Part shown: piece by piece, positions 7,912 to 25,712 of the stretch | How positions within the stretch are numbered: the stretch's first letter is position 1 | Layout: each line of letters starts with the position of its first letter | DNA from: Flavobacterium sp. | GTDB lineage: Bacteria > Bacteroidota > Bacteroidia > Flavobacteriales > Flavobacteriaceae | NCBI RefSeq assembly: GCF_046296355.1 | Contig: NZ_JBKBLM010000004.1 | Span: forward strand, 7,767 to 71,766 | DNA: 64,000 nucleotides | Direction: 5' to 3' | Notes under the pieces: generated by a model | Database searches by the model: none | Told to the model about the DNA's origin: nothing | What the model saw: only the letters and a program-made list of their open reading frames with translations | Made by a program: the position numbers and the translations under genes

Positions 7912-9174
7912 ATGGAATCAGTTCAAAACATAAAACAACGCTTTGAGATTATCGGGAATGACCCGAAACTCAATCGCGCCATAGAAAAAGCGATTCAGGT
8001 TGCTCCTACTGATATTTCTGTATTGGTTGTGGGTGAAAGTGGTGTTGGTAAAGAAAGCATTCCTAGAATTATCCATTCGCTTTCACATAGAAAACACGGG
8101 AAATACATCGCGGTAAACTGTGGTGCGATTCCCGAAGGAACCATTGACAGTGAATTATTCGGACACGAAAAAGGTGCTTTTACCGGTGCCAATAACGCCC
8201 GTGAAGGTTATTTTGAAGTAGCCGATGGCGGAACGATTTTCCTGGATGAAGTAGGTGAATTACCGCTGACAACACAAGTGCGTTTGTTGCGTGTTTTGGA
8301 AAATGGAGAGTTTATTAAAGTCGGTTCCTCGCAAGTGCAAAAAACGAATGTTAGAATTGTAGCTGCGACGAATGTGAATATGTTTGATGCCATTGAAAAA
8401 GGCAAATTCCGTGAGGATTTGTATTATAGATTGAGTACTGTTGATATTCCTTTGCCGCCGTTGCGCGACAGAAAAGACGATATTCATTTATTGTTTAGAA
8501 AATTTGCTGCTGATTTTGCACACAAATACAAAATGCCACCGATAAGATTGAGCGACGATGCCGTTCAATTTTTACAAAAATACCGTTGGAGTGGCAACAT
8601 CCGCCAGTTGCGTAACGTTGCTGAACAGATTTCGGTTTTGGAAACCAACCGTGACATTTCGTTAGCAACTTTACAATCCTATCTTCCTGTAGAAGGCAGC
8701 AATTTGCCTTCGGTGATTAGCGGAAAGAAATCGGATACTGATTTTTCGACGGAAAGAGACATTTTGTACAAAGTCCTTTTCGACATGAAAAGCGATTTGA
8801 ATGATTTGAAAAAACTGACTTTGGAACTGATGAAAAACGGCGCTAAATTACAGGATATCAATCCGAGTTTGATTCAAAAAGTCTATGGCGCCAAAGAAAA
8901 CGAAAGCGAAATTTCGTTTGAAGAAACCCCGAGAGTCAATGTAATTCCGACGCAAAGTCAAGCACACCAAGAAGAATTCGAAGAGGATGATGATCAAAAT
9001 TACCTTGATGCAGAAACGGTGGAAGAAGAAGAAATATTGAAATTAGAGCAAAAAGAAATTGAGCTCATCAAAAAATCATTGGAACGCCACAAAGGCAAAC
9101 GAAAAGCGGCCGCAGATGAATTGGGAATTTCAGAAAGAACTTTGTACCGAAAAATTAAGCAGTTTGATTTGTAA
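7912..9174 (+). CDS. Sigma54-interacting AAA+ activator (bEBP) with Fis-type HTH and no N-terminal sensor domain
   Basis: Walker A 'GESGVGKE', 'GAFTGA', Walker B 'FLDEVG', C-term 'AADELGISERTLYRK'. Confidence 0.93.
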   Translation: MESVQNIKQRFEIIGNDPKLNRAIEKAIQVAPTDISVLVVGESGVGKESIPRIIHSLSHRKHGKYIAVNCGAIPEGTIDSELFGHEKGAFTGANNAREGYFEVADGGTIFLDEVGELPLTTQVRLLRVLENGEFIKVGSSQVQKTNVRIVAATNVNMFDAIEKGKFREDLYYRLSTVDIPLPPLRDRKDDIHLLFRKFAADFAHKYKMPPIRLSDDAVQFLQKYRWSGNIRQLRNVAEQISVLETNRDISLATLQSYLPVEGSNLPSVISGKKSDTDFSTERDILYKVLFDMKSDLNDLKKLTLELMKNGAKLQDINPSLIQKVYGAKENESEISFEETPRVNVIPTQSQAHQEEFEEDDDQNYLDAETVEEEEILKLEQKEIELIKKSLERHKGKRKAAADELGISERTLYRKIKQFDL

Positions 9175-13140: not shown

Positions 13141-15498
13141 ATGCCGAAAAACACTTTCTTCCTTTTTATCCTAATGATGTCCAACATCATTTTCAGTCAA
13201 GAAGCAATTGATGAGAATAGATCAAGAATTATTTCGGCTCTTGAAAATTATTTTTTCTTAGAAAGAGAAGCTATTCATCTTCATTTGGATAAAACAACCT
13301 TCCTTACCAATGAAAAAATTTGGTATCAAGGTTATATCATTAATCGCAAAACCAAGAAACCCTTTTTTACCACCAATGTTTTTGTCGTACTTTATGATGA
13401 AAAAGGGAAACAGGTTTCGGAAAAATTAATTTATGCCTATAACGGTATTTTTTCAGGTGTCATCGATTTAGATGCCAAGATGACTTCGGGCAATTATTAC
13501 ATCCAAGTGTACACTAATTGGATGAATAATTTTAGCGAAGATGAATCGGGTATTTTTAAAATCAACATCATTAATCCAAGTGAAGGAGTCAAAAATGACA
13601 AAAAAATAGACGATGACTCCTTGGAATTATATCTGACGCCCGAAGGAAAAAACTTGGTAGCCAATGTCAGCAATACCATTGGCATTAGAGTAAAAGATTG
13701 CCGTGGCAATTCGCCTGAAAATCTCGAAGCAACACTACAAAATGCCAAAGGGGAAACCCTCAAAAACATTCATATCAATGCTGCCGGTTTTGGAAAGTTT
13801 GAAGTCAATCCTGAAGACGATTTTGACAAAGTTGTCCTAAAACACAATGATAAAACAATTGTCAAAACACTACCATACAAACAGAGCGTCGGATTTGGTT
13901 TAGAGGTTAATAATTTTTCTTTTGAAACAAAGACCATTATTAAAATTAAAACCAATCTTGCTACAATAGAATCCTTTAAAGCCCAAAAAGCCTATCTGAT
14001 TGTCCACCAAGACAGCAAACATTTTATCTATGACCTTGTTATGGACAAAAACAGTTTAGAACAAACCATCTCTCTACAAAATACCGATTTATTTTCGGGA
14101 ATTAATACCATACGAATTGTAGATAGCAATCTCAAAGAATGGGCAAATCGTGTGATTTATAATGCCCCAAAAAAAGAAACGCCAATCAGTATCACAAAAA
14201 ATTACCGCAAGGAAGATAAAATTGGATTTGTAGGCTACAGTAGTGCGCCTAATACAAGCTTCAGTATAACAATTGTTCCGACAGAAACCAAATCATTAAA
14301 AGAAAACTATAGTATTTTAGCTGGTCTTGGCATAAATCCCTATATCACAGAATCTTTACCAAATGCCAATTATTACCTCTTTGAGCCTAAGAGAATTAAA
14401 AATTATGAATTGGATTTATTTCTATTGAATCAAGCGGTTCCCAAATACGATTGGGAGAACATCAAGACGACAAAACCCGCTACTAACTTTAGTTTTGATA
14501 TCGGACTTACTTTAAAAGGAAACATCAATAAAAACGTCAAAAACTACAGCGATTACAAAGTCAAAATAACTTCTTTTAAAGACCAAATTATAAAGTCGAC
14601 TGAAATCAATGAAAAAGGAGAATATGTTTTCGAAAATTTAATACTGACCGATTCTACCACACTAGCCATGACTTTGCTCAAACTACCTAACTTTGAAATT
14701 ATTGACACTAAAATAGGACACCAGGTTTTAAACCGAAAAAAACCATTTTATAAACCGTTTAAGCCAAACATGAGCCAAGTATGTCCCGAAATTAAAGCGG
14801 AAAACACCATCGTCGACCTTGACCTCCCGAAATTTTCCTCTCAAGCCATACAATTGGAAGAAATTAAAGTGGAAAAAAAATTAACCTATCAAAGATCCAT
14901 TGGAAATGGCCATCTTATGGGTTATAAAGTAGATGAAATAATGGAGAATATCGATTTGCTCAGTTTTATCGAACGAAATGGTTTTACAGTCATCAGAAGA
15001 TTTGGCGATGCCACGATTTACAGTCGGGTCATAAACACCTTAAACGCCGAAAGACCAACACCACAAATTATCATAGACGGAAGAGTACTTATGAATCAGT
15101 TTGAATTTACTACCATGCGAATGTCAGACTTTGACGAAATCTACATCAGTTCGAATGCCTTGGTTCCAGGAATGCTTAACCGTTCAGGAATTATAAAGGC
15201 TTATACAAAAAAGAATTTTAAACCAAACCATATCAAAGCAGACCCAAATAATGTACTAATCAAAGAAGCCTTTTCATTGTATCCGATTTTTAAAAATGCC
15301 GACTACAAAAACACAAATAATTTGGGATTTGACCATTTTGGGTTAATAGAATGGGCATCATTATTAAACAGCGGTGAAGAAGGACAATTTCTTTTTAAAA
15401 TAACAGATTACAACAAACCCACAGTAAAAGCCATTATCGAAGGAATGACTCAGGAAGGCAAACTAATACACGATGAAATAATTATTGAAATGAAATAA
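13141..15498 (+). CDS. Secreted hypothetical protein with a macroglobulin-like N-terminus and a TonB plug-like C-terminal region, no beta-barrel
   Basis: Signal peptide; 'HLHLDKTTFLTNEKIWYQGY', 'SGNYYIQVYTNWMNNF'; plug-like 'IIIDGR...DEIYIS...GIIKAYTKK'. Confidence 0.6.
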   Translation: MPKNTFFLFILMMSNIIFSQEAIDENRSRIISALENYFFLEREAIHLHLDKTTFLTNEKIWYQGYIINRKTKKPFFTTNVFVVLYDEKGKQVSEKLIYAYNGIFSGVIDLDAKMTSGNYYIQVYTNWMNNFSEDESGIFKINIINPSEGVKNDKKIDDDSLELYLTPEGKNLVANVSNTIGIRVKDCRGNSPENLEATLQNAKGETLKNIHINAAGFGKFEVNPEDDFDKVVLKHNDKTIVKTLPYKQSVGFGLEVNNFSFETKTIIKIKTNLATIESFKAQKAYLIVHQDSKHFIYDLVMDKNSLEQTISLQNTDLFSGINTIRIVDSNLKEWANRVIYNAPKKETPISITKNYRKEDKIGFVGYSSAPNTSFSITIVPTETKSLKENYSILAGLGINPYITESLPNANYYLFEPKRIKNYELDLFLLNQAVPKYDWENIKTTKPATNFSFDIGLTLKGNINKNVKNYSDYKVKITSFKDQIIKSTEINEKGEYVFENLILTDSTTLAMTLLKLPNFEIIDTKIGHQVLNRKKPFYKPFKPNMSQVCPEIKAENTIVDLDLPKFSSQAIQLEEIKVEKKLTYQRSIGNGHLMGYKVDEIMENIDLLSFIERNGFTVIRRFGDATIYSRVINTLNAERPTPQIIIDGRVLMNQFEFTTMRMSDFDEIYISSNALVPGMLNRSGIIKAYTKKNFKPNHIKADPNNVLIKEAFSLYPIFKNADYKNTNNLGFDHFGLIEWASLLNSGEEGQFLFKITDYNKPTVKAIIEGMTQEGKLIHDEIIIEMK

Positions 15499-15528
15499 AA
15501 AAAGCCTAAATTTCTTGAGGCTTTTTTT
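15497..15528. terminator. Bidirectional terminator between convergent genes
   Basis: AAAAAAAGCCT-10nt-AGGCTTTTTTT. Confidence 0.8.
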
Positions 15529-16216
15529 ATTCTTCAGTTTCCGTTTTCGGAGTCTTTTTAATCATTTTAAGAAAGACTGGAAAAGTGGAAATCAAGATGA
15601 TGGCAATTACAATCTTTTCAATGTGATGTTTTAAATCGATATCAAACTTCTCTAAAAACATCCCGTACAAATAATGTCCGGAAAAGATTAAGATAAATGA
15701 CCAAAGGAAAGAACTAACCACATTGTAGAACATAAATTTCTTTTTGTCCATGGTTACAATTCCGGCCACTATTGGAGCAAAAGTTCTCACAATCGGTAAA
15801 AAACGCGCAAAAATGATGGCCTTTCCACCATATCTTTCAAAAAAATCTTTAGACTGAATTAAATATTTTTTCTTGAACCAAAAACTATCTTCTTTTTTAT
15901 ACAAATAGTAACCACTCTTAGAGCCAAACCAATAGCCAACCATATTCCCGACAATTCCGGCTATGGCAACTAAAACAGACAATAATGTAACATTAATCAA
16001 ATCGCTTTCAATGAAAGTAAAATTCTCAACTAAATCACGGCTGTAAATTCCGGCTAAAAATAACAAACTGTCACCAGGCAAAAAGAAACCTGCAAACAAA
16101 CCGGTTTCGGCAAATACAATAAACAACACAATCCAAAGTCCAACTCTCACACCGCCAAGTGTCATGGTTATGTAGAATTCAGGATTAAGGAGTTGCATCC
16201 AATCAAAATCACTCAT
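15527..16216 (-). CDS. DedA/SNARE-associated membrane protein
   Basis: 'FAETGLFAGFFLPGDSLLFLAG', 'ARFLPIVRTFAPIVAG'. Confidence 0.93.
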   Translation of the reverse strand: MSDFDWMQLLNPEFYITMTLGGVRVGLWIVLFIVFAETGLFAGFFLPGDSLLFLAGIYSRDLVENFTFIESDLINVTLLSVLVAIAGIVGNMVGYWFGSKSGYYLYKKEDSFWFKKKYLIQSKDFFERYGGKAIIFARFLPIVRTFAPIVAGIVTMDKKKFMFYNVVSSFLWSFILIFSGHYLYGMFLEKFDIDLKHHIEKIVIAIILISTFPVFLKMIKKTPKTETEE

Positions 16217-16316
16217 GAATTATAAAATTAAATAGGTAAAAAATCGAGCGTGAAATTAGTGCTTTTTTTTGGGATTCCTCATGCTTTTAACTTAAAACTA
16301 AGCATCTTTTTAAACC

Positions 16317-16349
16317 AAAAAAAAACTCCTTAAAAGTTAAGGAGTTTTT
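16317..16349 (-). terminator. Intrinsic terminator after the HMA gene
   Basis: AAAAACTCCTTAA-AAG-TTAAGGAGTTTTT, with an A run giving the U tail on the minus strand. Confidence 0.85.
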
Positions 16350-16353
16350 AAAA

Positions 16354-16695
16354 TTATTTTCTTTCATACAGACAACAACCATGAAGTTTTTCATACTCTT
16401 CTTCCGTTGCTTTAACATCTTCAGTATCATGACCAACTTTGGCAATGGCTTTCTTAACATCAACCAAAGAACATTTTTCTTCATTAATAATCAAATGCAA
16501 CATATGGTCGTCAATATGCCAATCTGCACTCTTTACACCCGAGACGGAAAAAGCCGCTTTCTCTATTCGTTTTTTACACATTTCACAATTGCCATTGACT
16601 TCAATAGTATGTTTGGCATTTTTATTTTTTTTCTCTTGAGCTTGAGTTGTAAAAGCTACAAAAAGCAACATCATTCCTAAAACTATATTTTTCAT
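16354..16695 (-). CDS. Exported heavy-metal-associated (HMA) domain protein
   Basis: Signal peptide, 'VNGNCEMCKKRIE' CxxC, C-term 'LHGCCLYERK'. Confidence 0.88.
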   Translation of the reverse strand: MKNIVLGMMLLFVAFTTQAQEKKNKNAKHTIEVNGNCEMCKKRIEKAAFSVSGVKSADWHIDDHMLHLIINEEKCSLVDVKKAIAKVGHDTEDVKATEEEYEKLHGCCLYERK

Positions 16696-16713
16696 AATCT
16701 ATATTTTAAATTG

Positions 16714-18735
16714 TTATTTTATTTTAAATCTTAATCCGGCATAATACATGGCGCCGAAAACAGGCGCATACACAATTGATGTATCAAAAGTAGATCCAAA
16801 AGGATTATCTGCACCCAAAACCGCTTGGTCTTGTGTATAATTTCCAATGTTTTCGCCACCAACATATACCTCAAATGTGCTTGAAAAAGTGCGTGTAATT
16901 TGTGCATTCATTAAGCTAAAGGTAGGCGAAAATTCAGGAAAACTGTCCGCTACAGCATTACTTCTTGTATTGGGCAATTGTTGTTTGCCTAACCAATTCC
17001 ATGTATAATCAAATTTCCATTGCTGTCCTTTTTCTTTGATATGTGTTTCAAATTCTAAGTTTCCAAAGAAACGATGTTTCGCTTGCAAAGGTCTTTGATA
17101 ACTACCTGAAAGATAATCGGTAGAAATGTCATAGTATTTATAAGCCGTTCTCAAATTCAAGTGTTTGATAATTTCTAAGTTAAAATCCATTTGCAAACTG
17201 TTGGCATAAGATTTTCCATCTAAATTATAAAACAAAACTTCTTGAGGCGAATTCATCACATCAACCACCGCTTGATTTTGAAAATCAGTTCGGTAAAAGT
17301 CAATGGTTGAGTCGGCTTTCATTCCGAAAAGCATAAAATTTTGTGTAAAACTCAATCCGTAATTCCATGCAATTTCGGGATCTAAACCATATATTTTCCC
17401 ATTGGTATCCAAGACTGAAAAAGTTCTTGAACTGGCAAAAAGGTTTTGATTTTCGGCAAAAATATTGGCGGCACGCTTGCCTCTTCCGGCAGAGAATCTA
17501 ATCACTGATTTGTCTCCGGGATTATATTTAACGTGTAATCTTGGGGTGAAAAATGCCCCTAACCTATTGTGGTAATCCATTCTTCCTCCTAAAATGTAAC
17601 TGAACTTGTCGTTGTCATCATAAGTATATTCGAAGAAAGCACCAACCGAATTGTCTATTCTGCTAACGTCATTCGAGTTCACAAATTCAGCATATTTATC
17701 ATAAGAAAAGTTCAATCCTGTGGCGAATTTGTGCATCGTGTTACTAATAATCGAATTAAAAATCAGGTTCGAATAATAACTTTGCTGTTTGATATCATAT
17801 TGGTTCAAACCGAAATACGATTCTTGATTGTGGGTGGTAAACGCATTTTGAAAACCGATACTTTGGTATGGCATATCTTTAAAAACATAGCCAATTTTAG
17901 AAGTGAAATCCAAACGCTCGGTATTGATTTCAGAACCCCAATAATTGGTGGTCAATCTATCTCTGTCGGGATCAAATTCAAGTTGTCCGGTTTGCTTTTC
18001 GTCGTTCATATAACGAACATTCAAAAACGAAACCCAACCCGATTCCGGATCATAATACTGCCAACGATTCGCGATATTCAATTGTTTTCCCAAAGGATTG
18101 TCCATAAAACCATCATCATTCATATCGTTTTTGGAAACGCGAGTATTGCCGTGAACGAATAAACTCGTCGACCATTTATCAGAAACTTTTTTATTAAAAT
18201 GGGTATTGATTTCGAAACGACTTCCGGTATCGCCATAAGCATTTAAAAAGAATGGAATATCGCCCAAAGGTTTGATTAACTCGGTATTGATTTGACCCGA
18301 AATGCTTTCGTAGCCGTTAACAACACTTCCGGCGCCTTTGGTAATTTGAATACTTTCTACCCAAGTTCCAGGTGTAAAAGACAAGCCATAAGCTTGCGAA
18401 GCGCCACGAACTGAAGGAATATTTTCCTCGGTAATCATGATATACGGACTGGTTAATCCAAGCATTTTGATTTGCTTAGTTCCGGTCAAAGCATCCGAAA
18501 AATTCACATCTATTGACGGATTGGTTTCGAAGCTTTCGGCCAAGTTACAACAAGCAGCTTTTAGTAGTTCTTTGCTCGTGACCAAAGTAGTATTGGCCGC
18601 GCCTTTTATTGATTTTTTTATTCCTTTTCGGTTGCCTTCTACGGTCACGGTTTTCAAAGTGTCTTGTTTCAAAGATTCCTGTGAAAATCCCAAAGTAGAA
18701 AATAACAACGTTAGGAATAACGGTATATTTTTCAT
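16714..18735 (-). CDS. TonB-dependent outer membrane receptor (putative metal-related)
   Basis: Plug 'KAACCNLAESFETNPS', 'IQITKGAGSV...GQIN', barrel ending 'YAGLRFKIK'. Confidence 0.9.
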   Translation of the reverse strand: MKNIPLFLTLLFSTLGFSQESLKQDTLKTVTVEGNRKGIKKSIKGAANTTLVTSKELLKAACCNLAESFETNPSIDVNFSDALTGTKQIKMLGLTSPYIMITEENIPSVRGASQAYGLSFTPGTWVESIQITKGAGSVVNGYESISGQINTELIKPLGDIPFFLNAYGDTGSRFEINTHFNKKVSDKWSTSLFVHGNTRVSKNDMNDDGFMDNPLGKQLNIANRWQYYDPESGWVSFLNVRYMNDEKQTGQLEFDPDRDRLTTNYWGSEINTERLDFTSKIGYVFKDMPYQSIGFQNAFTTHNQESYFGLNQYDIKQQSYYSNLIFNSIISNTMHKFATGLNFSYDKYAEFVNSNDVSRIDNSVGAFFEYTYDDNDKFSYILGGRMDYHNRLGAFFTPRLHVKYNPGDKSVIRFSAGRGKRAANIFAENQNLFASSRTFSVLDTNGKIYGLDPEIAWNYGLSFTQNFMLFGMKADSTIDFYRTDFQNQAVVDVMNSPQEVLFYNLDGKSYANSLQMDFNLEIIKHLNLRTAYKYYDISTDYLSGSYQRPLQAKHRFFGNLEFETHIKEKGQQWKFDYTWNWLGKQQLPNTRSNAVADSFPEFSPTFSLMNAQITRTFSSTFEVYVGGENIGNYTQDQAVLGADNPFGSTFDTSIVYAPVFGAMYYAGLRFKIK

Positions 18736-18813
18736 TTTGTTGATTTAAAATTAATTCTATTTCAAATGATTCTCAGTAGAAATAATGAGAACCTGAACGG
18801 AATTCAAAATAAA

Positions 18814-19233
18814 TCAGGCGTAAAAAGTGTATTGGCAGTAGAGTTGGTAGAGCGGCGGCGCATTAGAATCGCAGTAAAATGCCACTTTTTCATCCACAAA
18901 TTGGGGAGCATCAGCTACCGAAAAAAAGTGATTTTTGTATTCAGAGAAATAAGCCGGTTCAAAATCAAGAGAAATGGTCTTGATGATGATTTTTTCGGTC
19001 TTGTTTTTTAAGTCAACTTTCTTATCAGAACAACAGTCTTTGTGAGTCGTTTCAACATTGGCACAGCAGGTTTTTTCAACCACAACCGGCATTTCGCAAA
19101 CTTCTTCCTTAGAAAAAACAGAAGAGATAGAAGCTATTTTCCCTTCGCAATAATGCACACTAAACGCCAAGCCTGAATTGGAAACCAATATCAGCAAAGC
19201 GGTTAAAATACTAATGTGCTTTTTAAAGTTCAT
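18814..19233 (-). CDS. HYC_CC_PP family protein
   Basis: 'SVHYCEG', 'TCC', 'DCC', 'APPLY' signature; upstream of the TBDR. Confidence 0.85.
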   Translation of the reverse strand: MNFKKHISILTALLILVSNSGLAFSVHYCEGKIASISSVFSKEEVCEMPVVVEKTCCANVETTHKDCCSDKKVDLKNKTEKIIIKTISLDFEPAYFSEYKNHFFSVADAPQFVDEKVAFYCDSNAPPLYQLYCQYTFYA

Positions 19234-19237
19234 GACG

Positions 19238-19245
19238 CAAAGTTA
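19238..19245 (-). promoter_or_regulatory. -7 element for the HYC_CC_PP-TBDR-HMA operon
   Basis: Minus strand TAACTTTG, only 4 nt before the ATG. Confidence 0.6.
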
Positions 19246-19285
19246 GTAATAATCAATTACCCAAAACTTAAAATGTTCTTAAAAC

Positions 19286-20641
19286 TTACAAATCAAACTC
19301 TTGTCCCATCAAAGGAACTGAGCAATCAATCCCATATTTTTCTTGAATTTTGATGCGCAATTCATCTGCCGGTTCGTTTTCGCCATGGACTAAAAACACT
19401 TTCTTTGGTTTAGGGTTTAGTTCCGAAAGCCAATTAAGCAAATCATTTTGGTCACCATGTGCTGATAATCCTTCGATTTCTAAAGTTTTGCCCAAAACCG
19501 GGTAATATTTGCCATAGATTTTAATGTCTGTTGCGCCTTCGAGTAGTTTTCTTCCGCGAGTTCCTTCCGCTTGATAGCCAACAATGATTACTGTAGTTTC
19601 GGGCAAACAGATGTAGCGTTCTAAATAACTCAATACTCTTCCACCGGTAATCATTCCACTGGCAGCGATAATTACTTTGGGTTGTTTGTCAAAAATAGTC
19701 GCAATGGTTTCCTGATATTCTGAGTTCATGGTAAACATTTTACACATATCAACGCATTCCTGTTCGGATAATTTGTGCCAATTTCGGTTTTCCATAAAGA
19801 CCTCTAAAACACTAATGCCCATTGGCGTATCAATCACATAAGGAATATTGGGAATCCTATCTTCTTTTTTAAGTTGCCAAAGTAGGAACATCAAAGTCTG
19901 CGCACGTTCAACCGCAAAACTCGGAATAATAACTGTTCCCCCATTTTCAACTGTATTGTTGATGTAGGTTTCCAATAACAATTTCACATCTTCTTCGGGA
20001 TGAATTCGATTGCCGTAAGTGCTTTCTAAAAAAACATAATCTGCTTTCTTTGGTTTTACCGGTGCATACATCAACACATCATCATCTCGACCGATATCAC
20101 CCGAGAATACTAAAGCTTTATTTTCTAAAGTCAATTCAATACTACAAGCACCTATAATATGTCCGGCATTAGTAAACTTGGCCGTGATTTCTGCATCCAA
20201 AGCCACTTCTTCATTAGGTTTAACAACTCGAAACAGCGGAAAGACTTTTTCGGCTTGGGCTAAATCGTATAAAGGTTCGGCTTTTTCGTGTTTGGAAAAA
20301 TGCTCTTTGTTGGCTCGCTCAGCTTCTTCTTCTTGTATTTTGGCACTGTCTAACAAAATTAATTTGGTGATGTCTTTTGTCGGACTCGTGCAATAAATTT
20401 TGCCTTCGAATCCTTGATTGACTAATCTTGGCAACCAACCGCAATGGTCTAAATGGCCGTGTGTCAACAACACAAAATCGATGGTATTGGATAAAATCGG
20501 TAAAGGTTCCCAATTGAGTTCACGTAAAGGTTTAATCCCTTGAAACAATCCACAATCTATCAAAATTCGGATGCCGTTACTTTCGATTAATGTTTTGGAA
20601 CCGGTTACTGTTCCTGCGCCGCCTAAGAATTTAATTTTCAT
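19286..20641 (-). CDS. Metallo-beta-lactamase/beta-CASP ribonuclease family protein
   Basis: 'HGHLDH', 'AGHIIG', 'FSGD', 'ESTYG', 'SAHGD', 'VHGE' motifs all intact. Confidence 0.92.
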   Translation of the reverse strand: MKIKFLGGAGTVTGSKTLIESNGIRILIDCGLFQGIKPLRELNWEPLPILSNTIDFVLLTHGHLDHCGWLPRLVNQGFEGKIYCTSPTKDITKLILLDSAKIQEEEAERANKEHFSKHEKAEPLYDLAQAEKVFPLFRVVKPNEEVALDAEITAKFTNAGHIIGACSIELTLENKALVFSGDIGRDDDVLMYAPVKPKKADYVFLESTYGNRIHPEEDVKLLLETYINNTVENGGTVIIPSFAVERAQTLMFLLWQLKKEDRIPNIPYVIDTPMGISVLEVFMENRNWHKLSEQECVDMCKMFTMNSEYQETIATIFDKQPKVIIAASGMITGGRVLSYLERYICLPETTVIIVGYQAEGTRGRKLLEGATDIKIYGKYYPVLGKTLEIEGLSAHGDQNDLLNWLSELNPKPKKVFLVHGENEPADELRIKIQEKYGIDCSVPLMGQEFDL

Positions 20642-20642
20642 T

Positions 20643-21473
20643 TTAAATATATTTACAAAGCTCGGAAGCTTCTTTAATCACATTTTTGATTCGAATCGGA
20701 CTAAGTCCGATTTTTTCCAAAGTTTCAACATTATCGACAACTTCCTTTGCCAAGATAATATCAAGGACTAATAATTTGTCTTTTTCCGCCAAAGTCAAAG
20801 TGGTCAGGCAAGTGACCGGATACAATTGTCCTTCATCAATTCTTTTTCGCAAACTCATTTTTTCAGGATAATCCCAACTCAGCAATTGTAATCCGGAGCA
20901 ATGCGCAAAAGTCAGTGCATCACCTGTAAATCGATTATTGGTTACAATCCAACAACCGGAAATTTTATCTTTTCGAGTAAAAATGATATGATTTCTGTCT
21001 TTTAAATCGTTAAAACGGGAAAGTATGTACATCGGCACTTTTACATCTGAATTGGTTTCACTTTTGGGATGAAATTTACATTCGACCATTTCTACCCAAT
21101 CATTTTTCTTAATGGCAACGTCTATTTCATGTCCTACGCATTTTCCGGACAAAAGAAGGTTGGTTTGTGCCAAATAGCCTTCCGAGATAAATAATCGAGC
21201 GATATATTTTTCAAAGAAAAAACCAGCTGGACCAAGCATTTGAATGGCTGTTTTGAGATTATAGCGCGCGGCGTTTGCATTGGAAACTTTTTTCAACAAT
21301 CCGAAAGCCAACTTGTAGATTTTTTTGGTAGAAATACCTTCGTAGATTTGTTTATCAATTTCTTGTAAAATATCTTCTACTACATGCTTATTGGCGCCCG
21401 ATTTGAGCAGAGAATTTTTAAGTTTGTCCCGATTGAAATCAACGATATTCCCAGAATGCTTTACTATTTTCAT
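20643..21473 (-). CDS. ATP-cone domain fused to an Mrr-like PD-(D/E)xK endonuclease domain
   Basis: N-term 'IVKHSGNIVDFNRDKL'; 'FFEKYIARLF', 'EIDV...VECK', 'IVTNNRFTGDA'. Confidence 0.82.
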   Translation of the reverse strand: MKIVKHSGNIVDFNRDKLKNSLLKSGANKHVVEDILQEIDKQIYEGISTKKIYKLAFGLLKKVSNANAARYNLKTAIQMLGPAGFFFEKYIARLFISEGYLAQTNLLLSGKCVGHEIDVAIKKNDWVEMVECKFHPKSETNSDVKVPMYILSRFNDLKDRNHIIFTRKDKISGCWIVTNNRFTGDALTFAHCSGLQLLSWDYPEKMSLRKRIDEGQLYPVTCLTTLTLAEKDKLLVLDIILAKEVVDNVETLEKIGLSPIRIKNVIKEASELCKYI

Positions 21474-21529
21474 GGTAAACGAAATTAAATTTCAGTTTAA
21501 ACAACCTTAGTAAAGTTACGAAAAATCGC

Positions 21530-21976
21530 TTACTTTTTGGCTAGTTTTTGGTAATAAAACGCCGGAATAAAAAGCATTATAAAAATCGGCTGGATTAGAA
21601 ATCTTCTGAGGTAGAATAGGGTCATTTTGTTTTCTTCACCAAAGAAAGTCAGCACAAAAATGAAGCTTATCATTAGCATTGACCCTAAAATCATATAAAG
21701 CAACATCGAGAACTTAACGATTTTGGTGTCTTTAAAAATCACATACAGCAAAAACAACGAAATCACCGAATTGAAATAAAACCGCATGCCCAAGCTGAAA
21801 AAAAGCTTAAAAACATTGAACTGCGGCAACTTCGCATGCGCATATTCGCTTTTGAAATAAGCCAAAAACGGATCATAAAACAAATTGTCTTCGAAAAGCC
21901 TGATGCAGATTAACAATCCAATCAGAAACAAAGACCAAAACACTTTCGATTTATTTTTTAGTAGCAGCTGTAGCAT
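21530..21976 (-). CDS. Exosortase F system-associated membrane protein
   Basis: 'IRLFEDNLFYDPFLAYFK', 'FYLRRFLIQP'; overlaps the xrtF end; start set at 'MLQLLLKNK' (21976). Confidence 0.85.
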   Translation of the reverse strand: MLQLLLKNKSKVFWSLFLIGLLICIRLFEDNLFYDPFLAYFKSEYAHAKLPQFNVFKLFFSLGMRFYFNSVISLFLLYVIFKDTKIVKFSMLLYMILGSMLMISFIFVLTFFGEENKMTLFYLRRFLIQPIFIMLFIPAFYYQKLAKK

Positions 21977-22508
21977 GTAATGAAAATTTATTGACCCAAA
22001 CGACCCAAAGTAAAAATACAATTCCGTAAATAACTAGTGGAAAAACAATGCCGTGAAGTATGTGTTCGTATTCCGGGAAACTGTATAGTGCCATACAAAG
22101 TAAAGCGATTCTGGTGATATTTAAAACATGAATTAAAACACTTCCGAATAAAATAAAAAGAAGCGTTTGCTTCCATTTTCCGGTAAAAGCAATCACAAAA
22201 GAAATGAATAGAATAATTACACTCAAAGCGTTACAACCTTCAATAATTCGGGATATATATTGACCTTTGTAAATGATTTTTATGCTTGGTTCTGTTGGAT
22301 GTGACTCAATGTAAGTTTCGGTATCAAATAAAGTTAGAACAGATTTAGTTTGATTAGCCACTAATTGTGAAAACGAATCGATTTCATTTTTCGCAGTATC
22401 AAATCGATTCAAATAAGTTTGATAAATGATGGTTAAGACCAAATACGTCAGCAAAAATTTCCCCAGAAAAATTAAAAACGGTTTGTATTGCTGTAGCAGA
22501 TTCTTCAA
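21951..22508 (-). CDS. xrtF: Exosortase family protein XrtF
   Basis: Catalytic Cys in 'IIEGCNALS', 'NITRI', 'HGIVFPLVIYG'. Confidence 0.88.
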   Translation of the reverse strand: MKNLLQQYKPFLIFLGKFLLTYLVLTIIYQTYLNRFDTAKNEIDSFSQLVANQTKSVLTLFDTETYIESHPTEPSIKIIYKGQYISRIIEGCNALSVIILFISFVIAFTGKWKQTLLFILFGSVLIHVLNITRIALLCMALYSFPEYEHILHGIVFPLVIYGIVFLLWVVWVNKFSLHATAATKK

Positions 22509-22555
22509 AATGGAATTTTTAACAAATTTATATAAAATAAAAAAAGCGCAGTCGT

Positions 22556-22563
22556 TACTTTTG
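22556..22563 (+). promoter_or_regulatory. -7 element for the GAF gene
   Basis: TACTTTTG 15 nt before ATG 22579. Confidence 0.6.
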
Positions 22564-22578
22564 CATAAAAATTTGAAA

Positions 22579-23034
22579 ATGAATTTCGAAAACTTAAAAC
22601 CTCAAGTAATTACTATTCTTTCTGATGCGAATGCGGAAAGAGATACAAAATTAAAAACACTTTGTCAATTCTTATCGGACAATGTTGATTACTACAATTG
22701 GGTTGGTTTTTATTTTGCCAATCATGAAAACCGAACATTACATCTTGGACCTTACGTTGGTGCCGAAACGGATCATACGGTAATTCCGTTCGGAAAAGGC
22801 ATTTGTGGACAAGTCGCGGAATCTAACGCGAACTTTGTTGTTCCCGATGTATCGGCTCAGGACAATTACATTGCTTGTAGCTTTACAGTGAAATCGGAAA
22901 TCGTTGTCCCGCTTTTTGTTAACGGTGTAAACATAGGCCAAATCGATATCGACAGTCATGTGATTGATCCTTTTACCGAAGCCGATGAAAGATTTCTAGA
23001 GTTTGTAAATGAGGAAGTTGCCAAACTTTTTTAA
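22579..23034 (+). CDS. GAF domain protein (free Met-R-sulfoxide reductase MsrC-like)
   Basis: 'NWVGFY', 'LGPYVG', 'GKGICG', 'IACSFTVKSEIVVP', 'DIDS'; start set at MNFENLK. Confidence 0.85.
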   Translation: MNFENLKPQVITILSDANAERDTKLKTLCQFLSDNVDYYNWVGFYFANHENRTLHLGPYVGAETDHTVIPFGKGICGQVAESNANFVVPDVSAQDNYIACSFTVKSEIVVPLFVNGVNIGQIDIDSHVIDPFTEADERFLEFVNEEVAKLF

Positions 23035-23053
23035 GTTAGACTTATCTTTTTAC

Positions 23054-23083
23054 TTGCCTAATCAAAAAAGAAGATTATCTTTG
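23054..23083 (+). promoter_or_regulatory. Bacteroidota sigma70 promoter of rpsO
   Basis: TTG (23054-23056), 19 nt spacer, TATCTTTG (23076-23083). Confidence 0.8.
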
Positions 23084-23088
23084 CACAC

Positions 23089-23109
23089 GAATTGAGAAAA
23101 CCTCAATTC
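23089..23109 (+). promoter_or_regulatory. rpsO leader hairpin (candidate S15 autoregulatory leader)
   Basis: GAATTGAG-AAAAC-CTCAATTC, a perfect 8-bp stem at the predicted transcript 5' end. Confidence 0.55.
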
Positions 23110-23140
23110 ATACATAATAATCATTTAAAATAATATTGGA

Positions 23141-23410
23141 ATGTATTTAACTAAAGAAACAAAAGCTGAAATCTTCGCTAAACACGGAGGAAAAGCTGAA
23201 AACACTGGATCTGCTGAAGGGCAAATCGCTTTGTTTACTTTCAGAATCTCTCACTTAACAGAGCACTTGAAAAAAAATCGTCACGATTACAACACTGAGC
23301 GCTCGTTAGTACTTTTAGTAGGTAAAAGAAGAAGTCTTCTTGACTACTTGAAGAAAAAAGAGATTAACAGATATCGTGAGATTATCAAAGAATTAGGTAT
23401 TAGAAAATAA
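23141..23410 (+). CDS. rpsO: 30S ribosomal protein S15
   Basis: 'NTGSAEGQIALFT', 'HLKKNRHD', 'LVGKRRSLLDYL'. Confidence 0.98.
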   Translation: MYLTKETKAEIFAKHGGKAENTGSAEGQIALFTFRISHLTEHLKKNRHDYNTERSLVLLVGKRRSLLDYLKKKEINRYREIIKELGIRK

Positions 23411-23419
23411 TACATATCT

Positions 23420-23445
23420 AAAGAGGTGCTTGCGCGCCTCTTTTT
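23420..23445 (+). terminator. rpsO terminator
   Basis: AAAGAGGTGC-TTGC-GCGCCTCTTT plus T run. Confidence 0.8.
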
Positions 23446-23564
23446 GTTTTATAAATAAAGAAGAAAAGTTTCGGTTTTTCATTGGGTTACACACAACAAC
23501 TACTACAACACAACTAATTCTGTCGACAGGCGGAGACCAATGTAAAATTAAAAAAGAATAATTT

Positions 23565-25712
23565 ATGATTCCACAATTATTTGTAGAAACTATCGATTTA
23601 GGTGATGGCAGAAGCATCACAATCGAGACAGGACGATTGGCAAAACAAGCTGACGGATCTGTAGTAGTAAGAATTGGAAAAACTGTTATTTTAGGAACAG
23701 TAGTATCCGCAAGAAAAGCAAGTCCGGGTATCGACTTTTTACCGTTAACGGTAGATTATCGCGAAAAATTTGCCGCAGCAGGTCGTTTCCCTGGTGGTTT
23801 CTTCAAAAGAGAAGCTCGTCCAAGTGACAACGAAGTATTAACCATGAGATTAGTTGACCGTGTTTTACGTCCGCTTTTCCCATCAGATTACCATGCAGAA
23901 GTTCAGGTTATGATTCAGTTAATGTCTCATGATGATGAAGTAATGCCGGATGCCTTAGCAGGATTAGCCGCTTCAGCAGCGCTAGCTTTGTCTGACATTC
24001 CATTTGAAACTCTAATTTCTGAAGCCAGAGTGGGAAGAATTGACGGTAAATTTATCATCAATCCATCTCGTGCCCAATTAGAATTGTCTGATATCGACAT
24101 GATGATTGGTGCTTCTACTGATTCTATCGCGATGGTAGAAGGAGAAATGAAAGAGATTTCAGAAGCAGAAATGGTAGAAGCCATCAAATTTGCTCACGAA
24201 CATATTAAAGTACAAATTGCAGCCCAAGAAAGATTGGCTCAAGCGTTTGGAAAAAAAGAAGTTCGTACCTATGAACAAGAAAAAGAAGACGAAGCTATTT
24301 ACGCTAAAGTAAAAGCAGCGGCTTATGATAAAATTTACGCTATTGCTAGCAAAGGTTCAGCTAAACACGAACGTTCAGCTGCTTTTGATGCGGTAAAAGA
24401 AGAAGTAAAAGCATTATTTACTGAAGAAGAATTGGCAGAAAACGGAGATTTAGTTTCTAAATATTTCTACAAAACCAACAAAGAAGCAGTTCGTAACGTA
24501 ACTTTAGATTTAGGAACTCGTTTAGACGGAAGAAAAACTACTGAAATTCGCCCAATCTGGTGTGAAGTAGATTATTTACCATCGGTACACGGTTCGGCTT
24601 TATTTACTCGTGGAGAAACTCAAGCTTTGGCTACAGCTACTTTAGGAACATCTAGAGAAGCCAACCAAATTGATTCCCCATCTGAACAAGGAGAAGAAAA
24701 ATTCTATTTACACTATAACTTCCCACCATTTTCAACAGGAGAAGCTCGTCCGTTAAGAGGAACTTCAAGAAGAGAAGTTGGTCACGGAAACTTGGCTCAA
24801 AGAGCGTTAAAAAATATGATCCCTGCTGATTGTCCTTATACAATCCGTGTGGTTTCTGAAGTATTAGAATCGAATGGTTCGTCTTCTATGGCAACTGTTT
24901 GTGCCGGAACTTTATCATTAATGGACGCTGGTGTTCAAATGATTCGTCCTGTTTCAGGAATTGCTATGGGATTGATTACTGACGGTGATCGTTTTGCAGT
25001 TTTGTCTGATATCTTAGGTGATGAAGATCACTTAGGCGATATGGATTTCAAAGTAACCGGAACTTCAGAAGGAATTACGGCTTGTCAAATGGACATCAAA
25101 ATTGACGGATTGAAATACGAAATTATGGAGCAAGCTTTGGCTCAAGCTCGTGATGGTCGTTTGCATATCTTAGGAAAATTGACTGAAACATTAGCCCAAC
25201 CAAGAACTGACGTTAAAGTTCACGCTCCAAAAATCATTATGAGAACCATTCCTGGTAACTTCATTGGTGCTTTAATCGGACCTGGCGGAAAAGTGATTCA
25301 AGAATTACAAAAAGCTACGGGAACTACTATCGTTATAAACGAAGTAGATGAACAAGGTGTGGTTGAAATCTTAGGAACTGATCCGGACGGAATTGCAGCT
25401 GTATTAGCGAAAATTGATTCTATAATTTTCAAACCGACAGTTGGCGAATCTTACGAAGTGAAAGTAATTAAAATGTTAGACTTTGGCGCTGTTGTAGAAT
25501 ATACCGCTGCTCCAGGAAATGAAGTTTTATTACACGTTTCGGAATTGGCTTGGGAAAGAACAGAAAACGTTGCCGACGTTGTAAAAATGGGCGATGTGTT
25601 TATGGTAAAATACTTAGGTGTTGACCCTAAAACCAGAAAAGAAAAAGTGTCGAAAAAAGCACTTTTACCAAGACCTCCAAGAGAAGAGAAAAAAGACGCT
25701 CCACAAGGTTAA
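23565..25712 (+). CDS. pnp: Polyribonucleotide nucleotidyltransferase (PNPase)
   Basis: '[11 protein letters not shown]', 'FFKRE', 'FTRGETQ', 'RREVGHG', '[10 protein letters not shown]', KH and S1 domains. Confidence 0.98.

Follow-up and report, generated by a model that had tools for sequence, protein, structure and literature searches.

The window analysed here is a stretch of 64,000 nucleotides from Flavobacterium sp. (contig NZ_JBKBLM010000004.1, positions 7,767 to 71,766), in which two neighbouring genes on the reverse strand, here called A and B, lie a single base apart (Table 1). Gene A encodes a predicted nuclease with an ATP-cone at its N-terminus, and gene B encodes a predicted ribonuclease with metallo-β-lactamase (MBL) and β-CASP domains. 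An earlier note, made from the sequence alone, had read the two genes as a nucleotide-pool-sensing nuclease pair, a DNase plus an RNase, possibly with an anti-phage or stress-responsive role and inserted between the xrtF and metal modules. We compared the domains of both proteins, their conservation and their genomic neighbourhoods, and the pair looks like a system for regulated nucleic-acid recycling under stress rather than for phage defence.

Three Pfam domains are annotated in A. The ATP-cone (Pfam: PF03477) scores 29.0 bits against a cut-off of 25.8, with amino acids 1-65 matching profile positions 1-72 of 88. It is followed by Mrr_cat (Pfam: PF04471) at amino acids 84-198, with 21.6 bits against a cut-off of 21, and by AF1548-like_C (Pfam: PF22357) at amino acids 218-272, with 26.5 bits against a cut-off of 23.9. 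The sequence of AF1548 (PDB: 1Y88) aligns to amino acids 84-271 of A with an E-value of 1.9e-25 and 31% identity. An AlphaFold2 model of A, built from an alignment of 32 diverse relatives, has a predicted local distance difference test (pLDDT) score of 96.2 and a predicted template modelling (pTM) score of 0.91. Searching with this model, Foldseek found 1Y88 at a template modelling (TM) score of 0.83, normalised by target, and the nuclease domains of Can2, Cdn1 and MspJI also resemble the fold of the nuclease core.

For the ATP-cone, a sequence-only search of the PDB with an 82-residue query returned noise and a marginal match to NrdR (E=0.76), and the fold comparison was used instead. The N-terminal 79 residues of the model superpose on the cones of the E. 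coli and Streptomyces NrdR proteins with a root mean square deviation (RMSD) of 1.4-1.9 Å over 79-80 columns, and less closely on the cones of ribonucleotide reductases (RNRs), with 2.3-2.9 Å. The model of this region has the β-hairpin and four-helix fold that characterises an ATP-cone. Among the 32 relatives, which are 33-56% identical, K5 of the cone never varies, and conservation reaches at least 90% at G8, F13 and K17; the positions of K5 and K17, in the N-terminal hairpin and the first helix, are consistent with a role as phosphate-binding residues. In the nuclease core, E116 and D118 of the motif 'HEIDV' (amino acids 115-119) and E131 and K133 of the motif 'ECKFH' (amino acids 131-135) are invariant in the same relatives and represent the (E)xD ... 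ExK pattern of PD-(D/E)xK nucleases of the Mrr_cat / AF1548 type. The C-terminal domain probably binds nucleic acid. Judged from sequence and modelled fold, A is a predicted nuclease of the AF1548/Mrr_cat family with a true ATP-cone.

Two other assignments of A were considered and rejected. A is not a Mrr-type (type IV) restriction enzyme, because the Mrr_N winged-helix domain was not found in the Pfam scan and the N-terminus is an ATP-cone instead, and it is not NrdR, because the cone begins at residue 1 and no zinc ribbon was matched in the profile scans. As a separate observation, C112, H115 and C192 of A (approximately positions 20898-21140 of the window) are at least 90% conserved in the 32 relatives and both cysteines are also present in AF1548, so that these residues could form a metal or redox site.

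In B, the Beta-Casp (E=1e-30), RMMBL (Pfam: PF07521; E=1.9e-17) and Lactamase_B (E=1e-14) domains are annotated by Pfam. The best relatives of solved structure are the nuclease part of Cas14 (E=1e-65) and RNase TTHA0252 (E=7e-60, full length). All seven motifs, MBL 1-4 and β-CASP A, B and C, with the residues D29, H61/H63/D65/H66, H161, D182, E206, H395 and H419, are invariant in 55 sequences, namely the B protein of the window and 54 homologues derived from the neighbourhoods. A histidine at motif C, here His419, reportedly marks the RNA-acting branch of the β-CASP enzymes. B has both features of this branch (CPSF73, RNase J, TTHA0252), the RMMBL module as well as the histidine at motif C. 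Because of these two features, and because TTHA0252 is its nearest characterised enzyme, we read B as RNA-type, a predicted TTHA0252-type β-CASP RNase.

Further candidates for B were rejected on profile scores and architecture. The Cas14 model of type VII CRISPR systems (NF045584) gives 378.9 bits against a cut-off of 800 and matches only at profile positions 1-436 of 612, with the C-terminal third missing, and the neighbours of B are xrtF, the TonB receptor, the HMA-like gene and others instead of the expected cas7/cas5 and CRISPR array. The aCPSF1 / FttA model (TIGR03675) gives 266.7 bits against a cut-off of 580.2, with a match that begins at profile position 176 and the KH region absent. 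On the model of the ligase-associated exonuclease B scores 49 bits against a cut-off of 325, and RNase Z was dismissed on score as well as on architecture.

The A-B offset, as estimated by tblastn, is the same (5 nt) in 12 out of 18 Flavobacterium loci, and in Criblamydia A and B overlap by 4 nt. Contigs of two metatranscriptomes span the A/B junction; the RNA data are taken from relatives, with the organisms being 90-95% alike to one of our Flavobacterium loci (L014), and the organism of the window itself was matched only in a hot-spring metagenome. These contigs from relatives fit A and B being one transcript. The sequence TAnnTTTG is the -7 promoter element of Bacteroidota. TAACTTTA, upstream of A, is near to this element, and the region around it is a possible promoter of A itself. 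A TAnnTTTG-ATG layout like that at TAACTTTG, in the spacer after B, recurs at the empty sites of relatives described below. The box at TAACTTTG stops only 4 nt short of the ATG of the small Cys-rich gene on the reverse strand, and this closeness suggests that the transcript is leaderless or that the start codon has been mis-placed. A scan of positions 15400-22700 for sigma-70 promoters and terminators gave no more matches than shuffled sequence, and it should be noted that Bacteroidota promoters differ from the sigma-70 consensus.

Table 1. Genes, domains and intergenic regions of the A-B pair and its surroundings. Positions are those of the window; aa, amino acids.
Feature	Position	Strand	Description	Evidence
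Gene A	20643..21473	(-)	276 aa; predicted ATP-cone / PD-(D/E)xK nuclease / AF1548-like C-terminal domain	Open reading frame, Pfam, PDB 1Y88, AlphaFold2 and Foldseek
ATP-cone domain of A (~aa 1-80)	21234..21473	(-)	Predicted ATP/dATP-binding allosteric sensor	PF03477, NrdR superposition, residue conservation
PD-(D/E)xK nuclease core of A (aa 84-198)	20880..21224	(-)	Predicted catalytic residues E116, D118, E131, K133	PF04471, AF1548 alignment, invariance, fold similarity
AF1548-like C-terminal helical domain of A (aa 218-272)	20658..20822	(-)	Helix-hairpin-helix-like	PF22357, C-terminal half of 1Y88
Gene B	19286..20641	(-)	451 aa; predicted MBL / β-CASP / RMMBL ribonuclease, TTHA0252 type	Pfam, PDB, motifs
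Single-base spacer, A stop (TAA) to B start (ATG)	20642..20642	(-)	Putative translational coupling	Sequence: TAA A ATG
Region upstream of A, 56 nt	21474..21529	(-)	TAACTTTA at 21511-21518, near the Bacteroidota -7 element TAnnTTTG	
Spacer after B, 52 nt	19234..19285	(-)	TAACTTTG at 19238-19245, immediately ahead of the following gene; marks where the cassette ends downstream	
Small Cys-rich secreted-looking protein	18814-19233	(-)	Downstream of the pair	
TonB-dependent receptor	16714-18735	(-)	Downstream of the pair	
HMA-like protein	16354-16695	(-)	Downstream of the pair	
VTT/DedA protein	15527-16216	(-)	Downstream of the pair	
xrtF (exosortase F) and associated membrane protein	21530-22508	(-)	Directly upstream of A	
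GAF-domain protein, rpsO (S15), pnp (polynucleotide phosphorylase)	22426-25712	(+)	1-4 kb from the pair	

Family A is both large and uniform, with 2329 matches in a word-indexed search and 420 representative clusters at E<1e-30 in an exhaustive search. Nearly all of the best 150 representatives of these 420 clusters are full length with 270-300 amino acids. In a genome scan with one genome per species and an alignment of 8 sequences as query, we detected 80 loci with A, which belong mostly to Bacteroidota and to many families therein. A B homologue is found on the same strand within 6 kb of A in 57 of the 80 loci. It is the next gene downstream in 42 loci, is positioned just upstream in 3 and lies 1-4 genes apart in the others, which makes it the commonest neighbour of A by far. 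Since the A-B pairing is conserved in this many independent genome loci, it is more than chance. Among plasmid or chromid records, 236 have a B homologue, most of them from Proteobacteria, and only 2 have A. Two loci have labels which do not fit their Bacteroidota-type gene content: L003, labelled 'Candidatus Nitrotoga', carries Flavobacterium synteny, and L072, labelled 'uncultured Citrobacter', has the same gene order as the Terrimonas locus L069. Both labels are probably binning errors of metagenome-assembled genomes.

The reading of the domains in the earlier note and its statement that the catalytic motifs of both proteins are intact are therefore borne out by the Pfam and PDB matches and by the residue invariance, as are the tight coupling and the co-occurrence of the two genes. 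Its proposal of a nuclease that senses nucleotides agrees with the predicted architecture of A (Pfam cone and fold match). The label 'DNase plus RNase' is not established as far as the AF1548-type nuclease of A is concerned.

To see how the pair is distributed among close relatives, metagenomes were searched with the exosortase-F-associated gene upstream of A. This resulted in 80 Flavobacterium-like loci sharing the xrtF synteny, of which 67 had room downstream and were used for the count. A directly follows the exosortase-F-associated gene in 35 of the 67 loci, and B follows A wherever the contig allows. The remaining 32 loci have an empty site and continue straight on to the small Cys-rich gene and the TonB receptor after a spacer of only 40-85 nt, as expected if the pair is, as had been proposed, an insert between the xrtF and metal modules. 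Loci with and without the cassette are interspersed over the whole range of divergence. In the loci that have it, the identities of A and of the flanking genes to the window sequence are correlated (Spearman 0.51-0.68). Where the cassette is kept, B is 76-88% and A 66-83% identical, versus 50-73% for xrtF. The simplest reading is that the cassette appears to be inherited vertically and to be lost repeatedly; it is dispensable and strongly constrained when retained. The genomic context of the pair differs even inside Flavobacterium (L014-L018).

Besides B, further genes are commonly found close to A. The neighbours of A in the 80 genome loci were clustered and the clusters were then named. The largest groups are universal stress proteins (Usp) in 21 loci and cation P-type ATPases in 20, followed by proteins of the thymidine phosphorylase family (TP, ~500 amino acids) in 17 and ribose-phosphate diphosphokinase-like proteins (Prs) in 14. 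AAA_28 kinase-like ATPases are found in 12 loci, type II glyceraldehyde-3-phosphate dehydrogenase in 10, class I aldolase in 9, a PAS histidine kinase together with a response-regulator/Crp regulator in 9 and D-2-hydroxyacid dehydrogenase in 7. BON proteins, metal efflux components and multicopper oxidases are each present in several loci. The TP neighbour scores above the cut-off of TIGR02645 and reaches 497 bits on the archaeal AMP phosphorylase model, for which the cut-off is 535; the Prs neighbour is of the PRK07199 subfamily. One locus, in Chitinophaga ginsengisegetis (L031:6881-8383), has an open reading frame of 500 amino acids after A, PolX/PHP-like by eye, in place of the β-CASP gene, and this is the only hint of DNA repair.

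On plasmids of Pontibacter actiniarum and Criblamydia sequanensis (Chlamydiota) the four genes form an operon in the order A-B-TP-Prs, in which the gene ends overlap or nearly abut. They are annotated as ATP-cone protein, MBL fold metallo-hydrolase, thymidine phosphorylase family protein and ribose-phosphate pyrophosphokinase. The Pontibacter operon adjoins a 2-hydroxyacid dehydrogenase, and the Criblamydia operon adjoins phosphoketolase, acetate kinase, glycogen phosphorylase and a P-type ATPase. Other lineages have parts of this set. Proteobacterial plasmids have the B-TP-Prs part without A, and in Ralstonia, Legionella and Sphingobium B heads such an operon, with overlaps of 4 nt and inside metal-resistance islands. 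In Sinorhizobium and Thiothrix the genes around B encode Crp/Fnr, hemerythrin, Usp and P-type ATPase proteins. The Acidobacteriota operon has no B; here LGT, TP, Prs and a CBS protein come after A, in a context of MerR, copper oxidase and CzcD, and A is also located beside TP-Prs without B in some Bacteroidota loci (L049, L068 and L070). Given the A-B, B-TP-Prs and A-TP-Prs linkages, the four genes behave as interchangeable members of one functional set.

An operon of the same kind has been studied in Bradyrhizobium diazoefficiens, where bll3117-bll3116-bll3115 (TP-Prs-MBL) is induced by microoxia at the RNA and protein level and has a FixK2 box; in a fixK2 mutant its level is reduced by as much as 30-fold (PMC6515984, PMC9104804). 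The Burkholderia lxa low-oxygen locus has a similar theme, yet A/B-type genes are not mentioned in the main text of the corresponding paper.

We tentatively favour the explanation that the cassette is a co-transcribed and translationally coupled unit for the breakdown and salvage of nucleic acids, gated by nucleotide status, under stress; we hold this to be possible, somewhat short of an even chance. Its substrate is most likely RNA. By analogy to RNR and NrdR, the N-terminal cone of A would bind ATP or dATP, and an oligomeric or conformational switch would set the PD-(D/E)xK site on or off. A would then act as an endonuclease making entry cuts, and B, as a CPSF73/TTHA0252-type enzyme, would cut RNA and degrade the fragments in 5'-to-3' direction to 5'-mononucleotides, finishing the degradation. 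In the fuller cassettes the mononucleotides might go on to the AMP-phosphorylase-like and PRPP (phosphoribosyl pyrophosphate)-synthetase-like enzymes, so that base and ribose phosphate are recovered, comparable to the archaeal AMP phosphorylase route (PMC9700705). The module would be deployed at shortage of energy or oxygen, or in metal stress. The substrate of A, the direction of the nucleotide control, the cooperation of A and B and the physiological trigger are the parts of this scheme which we infer.

Several points weigh against this explanation. The helix-hairpin-helix-like C-terminal domain of A suits DNA as well as RNA. In about one quarter of the A loci, B and TP-Prs are both missing from the vicinity. 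Boxes of the FNR/CRP type (TTGAT-N4-ATCAA) are not enriched over background upstream of A in the 80 loci. The RNA contigs across the junction come from relatives which are only 90-95% alike, and may include DNA carry-over. In the Bradyrhizobium operon, bll3115 is placed in the B family only by its annotation and the identical gene composition, with the gene order differing. Finally, no TP, Prs or Usp genes are found in the 64-kb window, and the link to salvage is therefore an analogy with other lineages.

An anti-phage role, as suggested by the earlier note, would mean that the cone senses a collapse or surge of ATP/dNTPs caused by infection and frees both nucleases on phage or host nucleic acid, as in abortive infection. 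The sensor and PD-(D/E)xK layout of A is indeed like that of Can2 and Cdn1, which are activated by cyclic oligoadenylate, the CARF_PDDEXK model of PADLOC-DB 2.0 matches A weakly (E=3e-4 over 62 residues), and plasmid copies exist. The cassette is also patchy, being present or absent at a fixed site (35 filled and 32 empty), which does not by itself point to defence. The expected defence-gene neighbours were not seen: none flanks the pair in the window and none is among the recurrent neighbour clusters of the 80 loci. In PADLOC-DB 2.0 there was no significant match for A or B, the weak one to CARF_PDDEXK being the only match of A and B having no match at all, and homologues of A were absent from 50,697 phage genomes and from the IMG/VR contigs. 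The cassette and its flanking genes diverge in step, as they would under vertical descent, its sequences show high conservation instead of fast evolution, and the conserved partners are metabolic enzymes. No anomaly in G+C content was seen at the A-B pair. We consider defence distinctly improbable. The only PADLOC match among the neighbours is generic: a sigma-54-dependent activator at 7912-9174 (+) matches the RtcR models (E=1.8e-103) through its AAA+/HTH (helix-turn-helix) part at profile positions 164-416, and is no evidence for defence because it has no CARF domain. The same patchiness bears on a housekeeping role in RNA maturation or turnover, such as the processing of rRNA or mRNA, which the earlier note had kept in mind. 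B is a member of the CPSF/RNase J superfamily, and rpsO and pnp, possible partners in such a role, are located 1.7-4 kb off on the other strand. The nearness of rpsO-pnp looks incidental, because this synteny is kept with or without the cassette, and the context of the pair varies even among the Flavobacterium loci. Because half of the closely related genomes lack the pair, we regard housekeeping as very unlikely.

The remaining alternatives concern the output of A. It could be a dATP/ATP-regulated endonuclease specific for DNA structure or damage, with B as a 5'-3' DNA exonuclease of the SNM1/Artemis-like or ligase-associated kind, which together process the damage of metal exposure or reoxygenation. 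PD-(D/E)xK with a helix-hairpin-helix-like domain is a common layout in DNA repair, some members of the A family are annotated as YraN or Holliday-junction-resolvase-like, the PolX/PHP-like gene stands straight after A in the Chitinophaga locus and a metal-stress neighbourhood is frequent. The properties of B speak for RNA instead, with the RMMBL 'RNA specificity' domain, the histidine at motif C, the RNase TTHA0252 as nearest characterised relative and a score far from the ligase-associated exonucleases. Ligase, helicase or recombinase genes are not recurrent near A in the 80 loci; the recurrent ones are nucleotide phosphorylase and PRPP-synthetase genes. DNA damage processing is in our view unlikely. 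A could also be a non-enzymatic, NrdR-like regulator which binds DNA in response to nucleotides and controls B and the downstream genes, with its cone being most like that of the repressor NrdR, its gene the first in the operon and its C-terminal domain helix-hairpin-helix-like. The four catalytic residues are invariant among the distant relatives, which would be needless in a pure binding protein, and the FNR/CRP-type box search upstream of A did not yield a conserved operator. This last alternative is highly improbable.

If stress-induced recycling is the function of the cassette, A might further act as gatekeeper to a route of bacterial 'self-digestion' that is widespread and as yet undescribed. 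On a fall of ATP or dATP in oxygen or energy starvation, A and the β-CASP RNase would dismantle ribosomal or other RNA, the AMP-phosphorylase-like and PRPP-synthetase-like enzymes would convert the mononucleotides, and the resulting bases and ribose phosphates would sustain dormant cells. This extension is more speculative and we regard it as doubtful. If true, the route would correspond in bacteria to the nucleotide-degrading pentose bisphosphate pathway of archaea, and A would be the first nuclease under allosteric control by an ATP-cone.

To our knowledge, work on ATP-cones has dealt almost exclusively with their regulation of deoxyribonucleotide synthesis, in RNRs and NrdR. If such a cone is coupled to a nuclease, the reach of this allosteric switch would widen to the degradation of nucleic acids. 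We found no functional study of an ATP-cone/nuclease fusion or of the A-B(-TP-Prs) operon in the literature searched, and surveys of domain architectures elsewhere may list the fusion. The linkages over Bacteroidota, Chlamydiota, Acidobacteriota and Proteobacteria define a coherent, uncharacterised module in low-oxygen and metal-stress islands, which yields the testable hypothesis that aerobic bacteria recycle RNA and nucleotides in dormancy-like states. They also suggest a likely role for two large families that are labelled only as 'ATP cone domain-containing protein' and 'MBL fold metallo-hydrolase'.

The pair is surrounded by core genes in the window, such as the sigma-54 activator, lptE, secG, groEL, rpsO, pnp, rpoD and rpe. 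The downstream module of Cys-rich, TonB, HMA and VTT genes (15527-19233) is syntenic in the Flavobacterium relatives whether they have the cassette or not. On a plasmid of Ralstonia insidiosa, the MBL-TP-Prs operon is likewise flanked by HMA and VTT genes. The start of the xrtF-associated gene is listed as a TTG at 22021, and there is an ATG at 21976 which overlaps the end of the xrtF gene (21951) by 26 nt. The TTG is probably too early, because homologues have 147-148 amino acids, which matches the ATG.

Among the closest known systems is AF1548 of Archaeoglobus fulgidus. It is a structural-genomics protein and a predicted restriction-endonuclease-like nuclease (PMC1821046). It shares the nuclease core, the C-terminal domain and the same D...ExK residues with A, whereas the PDB chain is without an ATP-cone and A has about 80 extra residues forming the cone at its N-terminus. 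The cone is kept in nearly all of the best 150 representative relatives of A. The cones of NrdR and RNR have the same fold as the N-terminus of A, which passes the Pfam cut-off and is 23% identical to E. coli NrdR, and their regulation by ATP/dATP through a change of the oligomeric state is the principle that would be expected for A. They differ in the output, which is a zinc-ribbon DNA binder or a reductase in NrdR and RNR and a predicted nuclease in A. Can2/Card1 and Cdn1 of type III CRISPR systems are similar to A in outline, as a sensor of small nucleotides is fused to a PD-(D/E)xK nuclease of similar fold. In these proteins CARF senses cyclic oligoadenylate, whereas A has an ATP-cone with ATP/dATP as predicted ligands and is found without CRISPR or defence context.

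TTHA0252 of Thermus thermophilus (PDB: 2DKF, 3IEK) is of the same length class as B and has the same MBL/β-CASP/RMMBL composition without extra domains. The proteobacterial genes annotated as 'MBL fold metallo-hydrolase' in the TP-Prs operons are nearer to B, at 40-45% identity. The pentose bisphosphate pathway of archaea, with AMP phosphorylase, ribose 1,5-bisphosphate (R15P) isomerase and RuBisCO (PMC9700705), resembles the proposed route in that mononucleotides from RNA are fed into central metabolism. The TP partner stays below the cut-off of the AMP phosphorylase model, and beside it a PRPP-synthetase-like gene was seen instead of R15P isomerase or RuBisCO. The bll3117-bll3116-bll3115 operon of Bradyrhizobium, although no ATP-cone gene is reported in it, encodes the same three products as the B-TP-Prs operons, with the MBL gene at the end.

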